Positions 31,903 to 32,172 of a DNA stretch of 55,384 nt are shown piece by piece. Each line of letters begins with the position of its first letter. The stretch's first letter is position 1. The position numbers were made by a program, and so were the translations under genes. The DNA lies in assembly GCA_041304605.1 (NCBI GenBank), contig JBFYNB010000002.1:1-55384 (forward strand), given 5' to 3'. The DNA is from Methanomassiliicoccales archaeon. Its GTDB lineage: Archaea; Thermoplasmatota; Thermoplasmata; Methanomassiliicoccales; UBA472. Under the pieces are notes generated by a model. It did no database searches. It had not been told where the DNA came from and saw only the letters and a program-made list of their open reading frames with translations.

Positions 31903-32172
31903 ATGCCTCGCCGCAAGGGAACCGCGGAAGCGGAATGCTGCACCGGAAAGCCCGAACCGCCCAAGTACGACGTGGAGGGAGTGGCCACGGTGGACGAGAG
32001 GGGGCAGATGGTCCTGCCCAAGGCCATACGGGACAAGGCCGGCATCCGTCCGGGGGACAAGCTGGCCATAGTCACCCTGGTCAGGGACGGGCGGGTTTGC
32101 TGCCTTCACCTATTCCGGACGGACGACCTGGCGAACGGGATCAAGGACATCCTGGAACCCAGGGGGGAATGA
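31903..32172 (+). CDS. AbrB/MazE/SpoVT-type small protein with two vicinal Cys-Cys pairs, first gene of the hgc operon
   Basis: 89 aa with the SpoVT-AbrB core VDERGQMVLPKAIRDKAGIRPGDKLAI. CC pairs occur at residues 12-13 (AECCTG, nt 31936-31941) and 66-67 (RVCCLH, nt 32098-32103). The stop lies 3 nt before the hgcA start. Confidence 0.75.
   Translation: MPRRKGTAEAECCTGKPEPPKYDVEGVATVDERGQMVLPKAIRDKAGIRPGDKLAIVTLVRDGRVCCLHLFRTDDLANGIKDILEPRGE

Follow-up and report, generated by a model that had tools for sequence, protein, structure and literature searches.

HgcC, a cysteine-rich AbrB-fold protein encoded ahead of hgcAB or arsM, as a candidate metal(loid)-responsive repressor acting on a TCWGA array

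Introduction

What controls the mercury-methylation genes hgcAB, and what purpose they serve in their native hosts, are open questions in mercury biogeochemistry. The abundance of hgcA is a poor predictor of methylmercury production. Studies of an hgcAB regulator are known to us only for one bacterium, and the regulator in question is ArsR-like; in Pseudodesulfovibrio mercurii ND132, an ArsR-like regulator encoded upstream of hgcAB reportedly responds to arsenic and SAH.

The DNA analysed here (referred to below as the window) is a 55,384-nt stretch of a contig from a Methanomassiliicoccales archaeon, which carries an hgc operon headed by a gene for a small protein with two vicinal cysteine pairs. 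The initial annotation of this gene, designated hgcC, proposed either a Hg/thiol-sensing regulator or a metallochaperone. The proposal was followed up here by gene context, sequence comparison and structure prediction.

Results

The hgcC gene and its surroundings

The following genes are considered below:

31903..32172, + strand: hgcC, encoding an 89-aa, Cys-rich protein of AbrB/SpoVT fold with C12, C13, C66 and C67 (ORF list, NF040962, TIGR01439, PF04014, AlphaFold2 model)
32176..33156, + strand: hgcA, encoding the corrinoid mercury-methylation protein, TTG start (NF040863, 385.6 bits, cutoff 275)
33156..33467, + strand: hgcB, encoding a 2x[4Fe-4S] ferredoxin with a C-terminal CC (NF040864, 110.7 bits, cutoff 99; tblastn coordinates)
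31313..31810, - strand: GNAT acetyltransferase gene, divergent from hgcC (PF00583)

The genes hgcC, hgcA and hgcB form a single, tightly coupled operon with hgcC in first position, as initially annotated: the hgcC stop and the hgcA start are separated by 3 nt, and the hgcB start overlaps the hgcA stop. The same hgcC-hgcA-hgcB layout is present in Methanomassiliicoccus luminyensis B10, a cultured methylator, and the nearest homologues of the protein (82–99% identity) are encoded in Methanomassiliicoccales MAGs, which marks the window as archaeal. The divergent GNAT gene, which shares a 92-nt intergenic region with hgcC, is a conserved neighbour in six related loci, found only in the Methanomassiliicoccales clade, and probably lies outside the hgcC system. 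No further copy of hgcC was found in the 55-kb window, and the search of the window for arsM yielded only a weak, generic SAM-methyltransferase similarity (positions 53463–53705, 34% over 88 aa).

The 89-aa translation agrees with the sequence quoted previously, including the CC pairs at residues 12–13 (AECCTG) and 66–67 (RVCCLHLF). It scores 98.7 bits (cutoff 70) with NF040962, the NCBIfam equivalog named "HgcAB-associated protein HgcC"; a label of this kind, mentioned in the initial annotation, thus exists. The alignment to this model covers residues 22–86 only, since the model starts just ahead of the first strand, and the distal CC of the N-terminal tail falls outside it. The protein also matches TIGR01439 (AbrB; 43.5 bits, cutoff 28.3) and Pfam PF04014 (MazE/AbrB; 37.6 bits, cutoff 24.7). 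A profile search of 1.84 billion cluster representatives retrieved 357 clusters at E <= 1e-10; the HgcC family is discrete and of moderate size. It is already catalogued (as NF040962) but, as far as we can tell, functionally uncharacterised: we know of no functional study of HgcC, and no function is attached to the database name.

Predicted fold and DNA-contact residues

An AlphaFold2 monomer model of HgcC, built on 64 homologues, reached a moderate mean pLDDT of 76, with values of 82–91 in the core. In this model residues 1–27, including C12 and C13, are disordered, and the first hairpin is poorly formed; these are followed by a helix (40–46), two strands (54–61 and 64–72) and a C-terminal helix (73–84), in which an LGP motif is conserved across most members of the family. 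C66 and C67 are located in the last of the beta-strands (beta-4). A Foldseek search against the PDB identified SpoVT, AbrB-N, Sso7c4, C68 and MazE as the best matches, all of them swapped-hairpin DNA binders (entries 2w1t, 1yfb, 5itm, 3o27 and 2mru; probability 0.75–1.0, TM(target) 0.5–0.75). No solved structure of a close relative of HgcC was found, the best sequence match being 2glw (E = 1e-5). The sequence profiles and the modelled structure concur with the AbrB fold assigned at the outset, and place HgcC in the AbrB/SpoVT superfamily, with a predicted swapped-hairpin fold of two beta-hairpins joined by a helix.

Residue conservation was assessed in 148 representatives of 50%-identity clusters. 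R43, the equivalent of AbrB R23, is kept in all 148, D31, G34, Q35, P39 and K40 are each kept in 144–146 (97–99%), and R33 in 134. The conserved loop and helix arginines of HgcC both match DNA-contact residues of AbrB.

HgcC-like genes precede arsM more often than hgcAB

A scan of species-representative genomes identified 80 loci with an HgcC-like gene (44–84% identity). In 52 of these the downstream gene, situated about 50 nt away on the same strand, is arsM, whose product of approximately 278 aa is an arsenite methyltransferase (NF008823, 369 bits, cutoff 263). Directly downstream hgcA and hgcB were found in 24 loci, and the remaining four were at a contig edge or not resolved; arsM and hgcAB were the only contexts met.

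The NF040962 equivalog fails to distinguish the two contexts, the arsM-linked proteins scoring 102–124 bits with it, i.e. above the protein of the window. In a neighbour-joining tree of HgcC-like proteins the arsM and hgcAB contexts interleave. One pair of loci, L014 (Methanoperedens, hgcAB) and L058 (an archaeon, arsM), encodes proteins that are 82% identical and shares the same operator type (see below). The two contexts may also be joined: L152 carries a composite operon of hgcC, arsM, a gene for a C_GCAxxG_C_C protein, hgcA and hgcB, and arsM adjoins hgcAB in six further loci. In another locus (L036) arsM is parted from hgcC by an ECF sigma gene and has an operator of its own.

The sampling was repeated from the HgcA side, by a metagenome scan with an HgcA profile that yielded 80 loci, biased to HgcA proteins 44–66% identical to that of the window. 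Among the 65 loci with sufficient upstream DNA, hgcC is present in 20 and missing from 45; two more loci with short upstream DNA also have it. With hgcC missing from about two thirds of the hgcAB loci sampled, methylation as such does not require the gene. Where it is missing, the slot upstream of hgcA is taken by genes of the ArsR family (12 loci) or of a Cys-rich MarR family (8 loci), and elsewhere by arsM (5 loci), an ArsP_1 permease gene (4 loci) or an ACR3-type (SBF) transporter gene (3 loci). The occupation of this slot by ArsR-type genes in other lineages makes HgcC look like a different solution to the same task, in line with the earlier suggestion. Genes for ACR3, ArsP and ArsR were found near hgcAB and arsM loci.

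The association with hgcA, for which a synteny screen had been proposed, is thus borne out in part of the hgcA loci, but the family as a whole is mostly arsM-linked. The arsM majority, together with the hgcA loci devoid of hgcC, rules out an HgcAB-specific factor. A Hg-specific sensor or Hg chaperone is not the default reading, because two thirds of the species-representative members precede arsM; judged from this gene context, As(III), or soft metal(loid)s generally, would be at least as likely a ligand as Hg(II).

A TCWGA array upstream of hgcC-like genes

A palindrome, ATTCTGA-tttt-TCAGAAT, is located at positions 31854–31871, 31 nt ahead of the hgcC ATG, and a repeat in this place had been put forward as a possible binding site of the protein. 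Two features were distinguished here:

31856..31869, no strand assigned: core operator candidate TCTGA-tttt-TCAGA, two perfect TCWGA units 9 bp apart, within the palindrome 31854–31871
31874..31887, no strand assigned: two degenerate in-phase units, TCTTA (31874–31878) and TTTGA (31883–31887), from sequence reading and the count of in-phase arrays

The degenerate units, which flank or overlap the putative TATA box (see below), have one mismatch each and lie in AT-rich DNA, and are only suggestive. The pattern TCWGA-N4-TCWGA has one match in the 55-kb window (0.12 expected), and no further operators of this type were found there. The core TCTGA-N4-TCAGA is identical in Methanomassiliicoccales loci L001–L004 and L081. 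A role of the palindrome in RNA, as a hairpin or terminator, was rejected: no transcript ends here, since the GNAT gene upstream points the other way, the stem consists of 7 bp, mostly A/T, and what is conserved is not a hairpin but a set of phased pentamers that occur in either orientation.

An unbiased k-mer test was performed on the 100 nt upstream of 78 HgcC-like genes, with 5002 background windows from the same loci. The top 7-mer, AATCAGA/TCTGATT, was 134-fold enriched and present in 53 of the 78 upstream regions; the top 5-mer, TCAGA/TCTGA, occurred 2.0 times per 100 nt, compared with 0.12 in the background and 0.20 in the AT-rich background. For cores of the same orientation the distance was 9 nt (52 cases) or 18 nt (9 cases); for CTGA..TCAG pairs it was 8 nt (25 cases) or 17 nt (9 cases), and for TCAG..CTGA pairs 10 nt (26 cases) or 19 nt (5 cases). 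As the TCWGA unit is palindromic, all of these distances reduce to a rigid 9 (or 18) bp between pentamer centres. The consensus of the unit is TAT-TCTGA-TTA, and the usual array consists of three to four in-phase units. Protein arrays on B-DNA do not usually have a phase of 9 bp, which is a point against the mechanism proposed below.

The distribution of the motif follows that of hgcC. All 15 exact matches to TCWGA-N4-TCWGA in the 360,441 nt of the HgcA-selected set are situated 40–120 nt upstream of an hgcC-like gene, and none was found in the 45 hgcA loci without hgcC, which include six arsM loci without hgcC. The first set (550,460 nt) has 66 matches, of which 59 are at most 160 nt upstream of an hgcC-like gene, two more are accounted for by a mis-called start in L064, and another one is located 66 nt upstream of the separated arsM of L036. 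The array is therefore found almost only upstream of hgcC-like genes. The palindrome of the window is one case of a family-wide TCWGA array with a 9-bp phase, which precedes nearly all members in bacteria and archaea; as a candidate HgcC site it thus has strong comparative support.

Position of the array relative to the promoter

In bacteria the arrays start about 28 nt past a TTGACA box, which corresponds to the -10 region, and extend to approximately +18. In archaea 4 nt separate the end of the last perfect unit from the TATA box, which itself occupies the place of the next in-phase unit, and several archaeal loci have a further unit just past the TATA box. The array of the window (TCTGA at 31856, TCAGA at 31865, TCTTA at 31874 and TTTGA at 31883) likewise crosses a putative TATA box, cTTATAg (approximately 31875–31881). 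Read from the sequence, this element lies about 25 nt ahead of the hgcC ATG, which suggests that the hgcC mRNA is leaderless or has a short leader. We infer repression rather than activation because the array overlaps the -10 region or the BRE/TATA; an activator, too, might use a site that lies shortly upstream of an archaeal TATA box.

Cysteine sites of the family

Of the two cysteine pairs, whose conservation had been proposed as a check, only the internal one is nearly invariant. It is present in 188 of 189 close homologues, and in the 148 cluster representatives conservation reaches 91% for C67 and 81% for C66. The N-terminal tail of the 189 close homologues contains at least two cysteines in 174 cases and at least one CC in 151; two or more tail cysteines occur in 82% of the 148 cluster representatives, as against 92% of the close homologues, and their position is variable. 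Across the family the number of tail cysteines ranges from 0 to 6.

The alignment resolves three cysteine sites: the distal tail CC, equivalent to C12/C13 of the window protein (site A), a proximal CC or xC just ahead of the first strand ("CCKVE"), which is present in most members (site B), and the internal "VCC" (site C). The N-terminal CC of the window protein is accordingly one of two variable tail sites. The clade of the window is devoid of site B, having Y22 instead, and carries a histidine at position 69, two residues past C67. Site B and residue 69 vary together (63 sequences pair Tyr with His, 164 of 165 with Cys have a non-His residue, and 14 pair Leu with Tyr), in a tally that counts sequences and probably reflects only two or three independent changes. 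This co-variation hints that the base of the tail packs on the last strand, and is regarded as a lead only. The mean number of tail cysteines is 3.4 in arsM-linked and 2.6 in hgcAB-linked proteins, a difference confounded by phylogeny, and the tail-cysteine number was dropped as a sign of ligand specificity for this reason.

Discussion

A candidate mechanism

The interpretation that we favour, at slightly better than an even chance, is that HgcC is an autoregulated repressor of its own operon which is released from DNA by a thiophilic metal(loid). The components of this proposal differ in strength. DNA binding, which the conserved operator leads us to infer, and autoregulation are highly probable. 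Thiol-based sensing, suggested by the conservation of the cysteines and by gene context, seems only a little more probable than its opposite, and the binding of a ligand, as well as the identity of that ligand, is deduced in the same indirect manner. Either Hg(II) or As(III) would be compatible with the cysteines of HgcC, which would equally suit a redox signal or a structural Zn site.

According to this proposal, an HgcC dimer, or a dimer of dimers, would sit on the array, in which palindromic TCWGA pentamers follow one another at 9 bp between centres. In the window it would cover TCTGA-N4-TCAGA (31856–31869) and then the in-phase TCTTA and TTTGA across the TATA box. Bound in this way, it would keep TFB/TBP off archaeal promoters, and in bacteria it would obstruct RNA polymerase at the -10 region and the start of transcription. 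C66/C67 of the last beta-strand and C12/C13 of the tail would bind a thiophilic metal(loid), for which As(III), Hg(II) and related soft species are candidates, with H69 as a speculative extra ligand in the clade of the window. Binding would free HgcC from DNA and derepress the methylation genes (here hgcAB), and the same regulator-operator module would drive arsM in most other lineages.

The best explanation of the two contexts is that HgcC is a general soft-metal(loid) sensor for methylation genes, not an HgcAB-specific one. Of the Hg/thiol-sensing regulator initially envisaged, the regulator is retained, in view of the operator and the DNA-contact residues, but the arsM majority speaks against a role specific for Hg or HgcAB. 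As(III) is favoured as the ligand because of this majority and the surrounding ars-type genes; a response to Hg(II) or to a broad range of soft metals is possible, and the hgcAB-linked clades, with their other tail sites and H69, may have shifted in specificity.

Alternative explanations

Several other roles have to be weighed against the metal(loid)-released repressor. HgcC could be a metallochaperone, or an ArsD-like protein of dual function, which binds Hg(II) or As(III) through the vicinal cysteines and passes it to HgcAB or ArsM, and for which DNA binding is secondary. Its Cys-rich tail does resemble cysteine-rich stretches at the N-terminus of the adjacent ArsM (GGCCSGTTSCGCG) and, in other lineages, of many HgcA proteins, hgcC is tightly, perhaps translationally, coupled to hgcA, and the chaperone ArsD ligates As(III) with vicinal Cys pairs. 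A chaperone would not, however, account for the invariance of the DNA-contact residues or for the specific operator that travels with hgcC, and it would be required to serve two enzymes of unrelated mechanism by means of proteins that are 82% identical. The hgcAB loci without hgcC, which have ArsR- or MarR-type regulators instead, and the arsM of L036, which is separated from hgcC and carries its own operator, point in the same direction. The chaperone option of the initial annotation is weakened accordingly, and we consider it unlikely. Much the same low probability is assigned to a repressor acting as a thiol-redox switch, which would sense oxidants, disulfide stress or thiol modification and tie oxygen-sensitive methylation enzymes to the redox state. 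Such a switch would suit a monomer with 4–6 cysteines in hosts that are all strict anaerobes, a cyanobacterial AbrB-like regulator is reportedly under the control of glutathionylation, and the operator argues for a regulator whatever its signal. On the other hand, the family was met in no context other than arsM and hgcAB. The genes around it in the examined loci include some of the ars type (ACR3, ArsP, ArsR) but none for oxidative stress, and ArsM is not an oxygen-sensitive enzyme.

The cysteines could also have a structural role, fastening the tail to the barrel through a Zn or Fe-S site; HgcC would then be constitutive, or respond to another ligand, e.g. SAH or SAM, or to none. The packing of the tail base on beta-4 suggested by the co-variation of Y22 with residue 69 would be consistent with such a site, as would, for the ligand, the response to SAH besides arsenic that is reported for the ArsR-like hgcAB regulator of P. 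mercurii ND132. A structural site is nevertheless difficult to reconcile with tail cysteines that vary so widely in number and position, the proximal site having been lost in the clade of the window, and no small-molecule-binding domain is recognisable in the 89 aa; we rate this explanation as quite improbable. Finally, the name of PF04014 (MazE_antitoxin) and the JGI annotation of many homologues as "antitoxin PrlF" would assign HgcC to a toxin-antitoxin system, as an antitoxin of the MazE/PrlF type. Approximately 100 loci were examined and none has a toxin gene next to hgcC, nor does the window contain one; the downstream position in these loci is always occupied by hgcA, arsM or the contig end, and the PrlF model gives 16.5 bits against a cutoff of 125. 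Gene context and the sub-threshold score rule out the antitoxin, whose residual probability is negligible.

Comparison with known systems

Within NF040962 the window protein is a regular member that adjoins hgcA and hgcB, but the name of the family reflects its minority context. The closest functional parallel is with the ArsR/SmtB proteins, which are also small, Cys-bearing and encoded first in an operon, ahead of arsM or hgcAB and with an operator over the promoter. They differ from HgcC in having a winged helix instead of a swapped-hairpin AbrB barrel; no HTH_5 or ArsR match to HgcC was found in Pfam or NCBIfam, and, unlike in ArsR/SmtB, the operator is a TCWGA array at a 9-bp phase and the cysteines are arranged as vicinal pairs. 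HgcC is best read as ArsR-like in function, i.e. a repressor of arsM or hgcAB, and as standing outside the ArsR family.

The domain is shared with AbrB, Abh, SpoVT, MazE, MraZ and Sso7c4, which provide the best structural match, and of which MraZ reads an array of short repeats with a fixed spacing of about 10 bp. Compared with these DNA binders HgcC has a longer beta-3/beta-4 hairpin and the C-terminal helix 73–84. To our knowledge, none of them carries a CC conserved in the last strand or a Cys-rich N-terminal tail, and none is known to sense a metal(loid).

ArsD resembles HgcC in its vicinal Cys pairs and arsenic-related context, but the two have no sequence similarity, and no ArsD domain was detected in HgcC with Pfam or NCBIfam. 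ArsD is an arsenic metallochaperone and weak repressor with a thioredoxin-like fold, whose partner is the ArsA ATPase. MerR, a Hg(II)-responsive activator which distorts DNA at a promoter with a long spacer, would have its ligand in common with HgcC only if the latter senses Hg(II); the fold and mechanism differ, there was no MerR match in Pfam or NCBIfam, and the HgcC family is linked mostly to arsM and not to mer genes.

Implications

As far as we can tell, the link to arsM, the definition of the operator and the map of cysteine sites are new. A connection between hgcAB and arsenic is not new in itself, because the ArsR-like regulator of strain ND132 is said to be arsenic-responsive. The present analysis adds an independent link, in that about two thirds of the HgcC modules are tied to arsM, a single operon occasionally holds both arsM and hgcAB, and ars genes are found nearby. 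HgcC is thereby a second, widespread candidate regulator of hgcAB, with a precisely defined candidate operator.

HgcC may represent a structurally new class of transcription factors that sense metal(loid)s, with an AbrB barrel, a vicinal-Cys sensor and a TCWGA array at a 9-bp phase, distributed in Bacteria and Archaea; we give this a somewhat less than even chance. If its cysteines do sense a metal(loid), it would be the first AbrB-fold metalloregulator known to us. Were it such a sensor, many lineages would natively express hgcAB in an arsenic or soft-metalloid response and not in a mercury response, and HgcC would give experiments direct access to the native role of mercury methylation and to its regulation.

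The name "HgcAB-associated protein HgcC" will mislabel many arsM-linked genes, which matters when it is used as a marker of methylators. HgcC occurs in cultured methanogenic methylators, e.g. M. luminyensis B10, in which the region upstream of hgcC reads TCAGC-N4-TCAGA-N4-TCAGA-N4-TATAT.

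Candidate regulators at hgcA loci and their link with arsM

Among the 80 metagenome loci selected with the HgcA profile (L081-L160), the slot 5' of hgcA was found to contain small Cys-bearing regulators of three mutually unrelated types:

HgcC/AbrB type: 20-22 loci
ArsR HTH_5 type: 12 loci
MarR type with Cys-rich ends (e.g. ...CSCCKSLE): 8 loci

Genes encoding an ArsP_1 permease and an ACR3-type transporter were also detected upstream of hgcA in this set. In seven of the 80 loci (L084, L086, L095, L104, L125, L126 and L152) hgcAB is physically adjoined by arsM. L152 (positions 1229-4300) carries a composite operon of the gene order hgcC-arsM-(C_GCAxxG_C_C protein)-hgcA-hgcB, with one TCWGA operator placed ahead of all the genes.

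The arsM-linked proteins tested with NCBIfam NF040962, a curated "HgcC" equivalog with a cutoff of 70 bits, scored 102-124 bits (proteins of L006, L010, L011, L032 and L058), i.e. above the cutoff and higher than the protein of the window. Therefore, genome annotation will attach the name "HgcAB-associated protein HgcC" to many arsM-linked genes of organisms that possibly lack hgcAB.

Arrangement of the candidate operators

In L036 (3959-6557) an ECF sigma-factor gene comes next after the regulator gene. arsM is located 1.5 kb away and has a TCTGATTTATCAGA site of its own, 66 nt ahead of it; this locus is an example of a candidate operator that would act at a separate promoter. ECF sigma-like genes were seen repeatedly (approximately 10 loci). 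Upstream of the hgcAB-linked hgcC of L030 (3840-4000), the whole promoter-operator region, a unit of the form TTGACA ... AATCAGTATAATCAGAATATTCTGATTA ... RBS, is tandemly duplicated (~77 nt x2).

In the intergenic region of the window (31811-31902), the palindrome upstream of hgcC sits between two putative TATA elements. The same intergenic region contains a further conserved element:

within 31811-31902, GNAT side: second conserved block (ATTTCGTTTT)

The block probably represents the GNAT promoter, which is divergent (GAAATA... when read as the reverse complement).

Cysteine-rich tails and co-varying residues

Many HgcA proteins of other lineages (L014, L016, L029-L031, L042, L056, L061, L062) carry an N-terminal Cys-rich extension (e.g. 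SSCCSCTPVNGASPCTCTG and GEGCCGGPAPEGVAACC), which resembles both the HgcC tail and the N-terminus of ArsM. The N-terminus of the window HgcA (32176-32300) is devoid of such an extension.

The HgcC residue directly preceding the first strand (Y22 in the window, 31966-31968) co-varies with residue 69 (H69, 32107-32109) in the pairs Tyr/His, Cys/Ser, Thr or Ala, and Leu/Tyr, which represent few independent events. This co-variation suggests that the base of the tail touches the last strand. In the HgcC clade of the window, His69 may perhaps serve as a ligand.

Other genes neighbouring the hgc operon

29825-31015, plus strand: NYN-domain/OST-HTH (LOTUS) protein, upstream of the operon
31008-31457, minus strand: DUF6958 protein, upstream of the operon
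27096-27782, minus strand: aquaporin/aquaglyceroporin-family major intrinsic protein (PF00230), on the upstream side of the operon at a distance of 4 kb
33475-35148, minus strand: 7TM-sensor histidine kinase (HisKA_7TM, HisKA, HATPase_c), convergent with hgcB

The NYN-domain/OST-HTH and DUF6958 genes are retained as neighbours in the closest relatives, and no connection between their products and the hgc operon is apparent. The aquaporin/aquaglyceroporin family includes some proteins that conduct As(III); no operator was found near the major intrinsic protein gene in the window. The histidine kinase gene is a conserved neighbour in approximately six related Methanomassiliicoccales loci.
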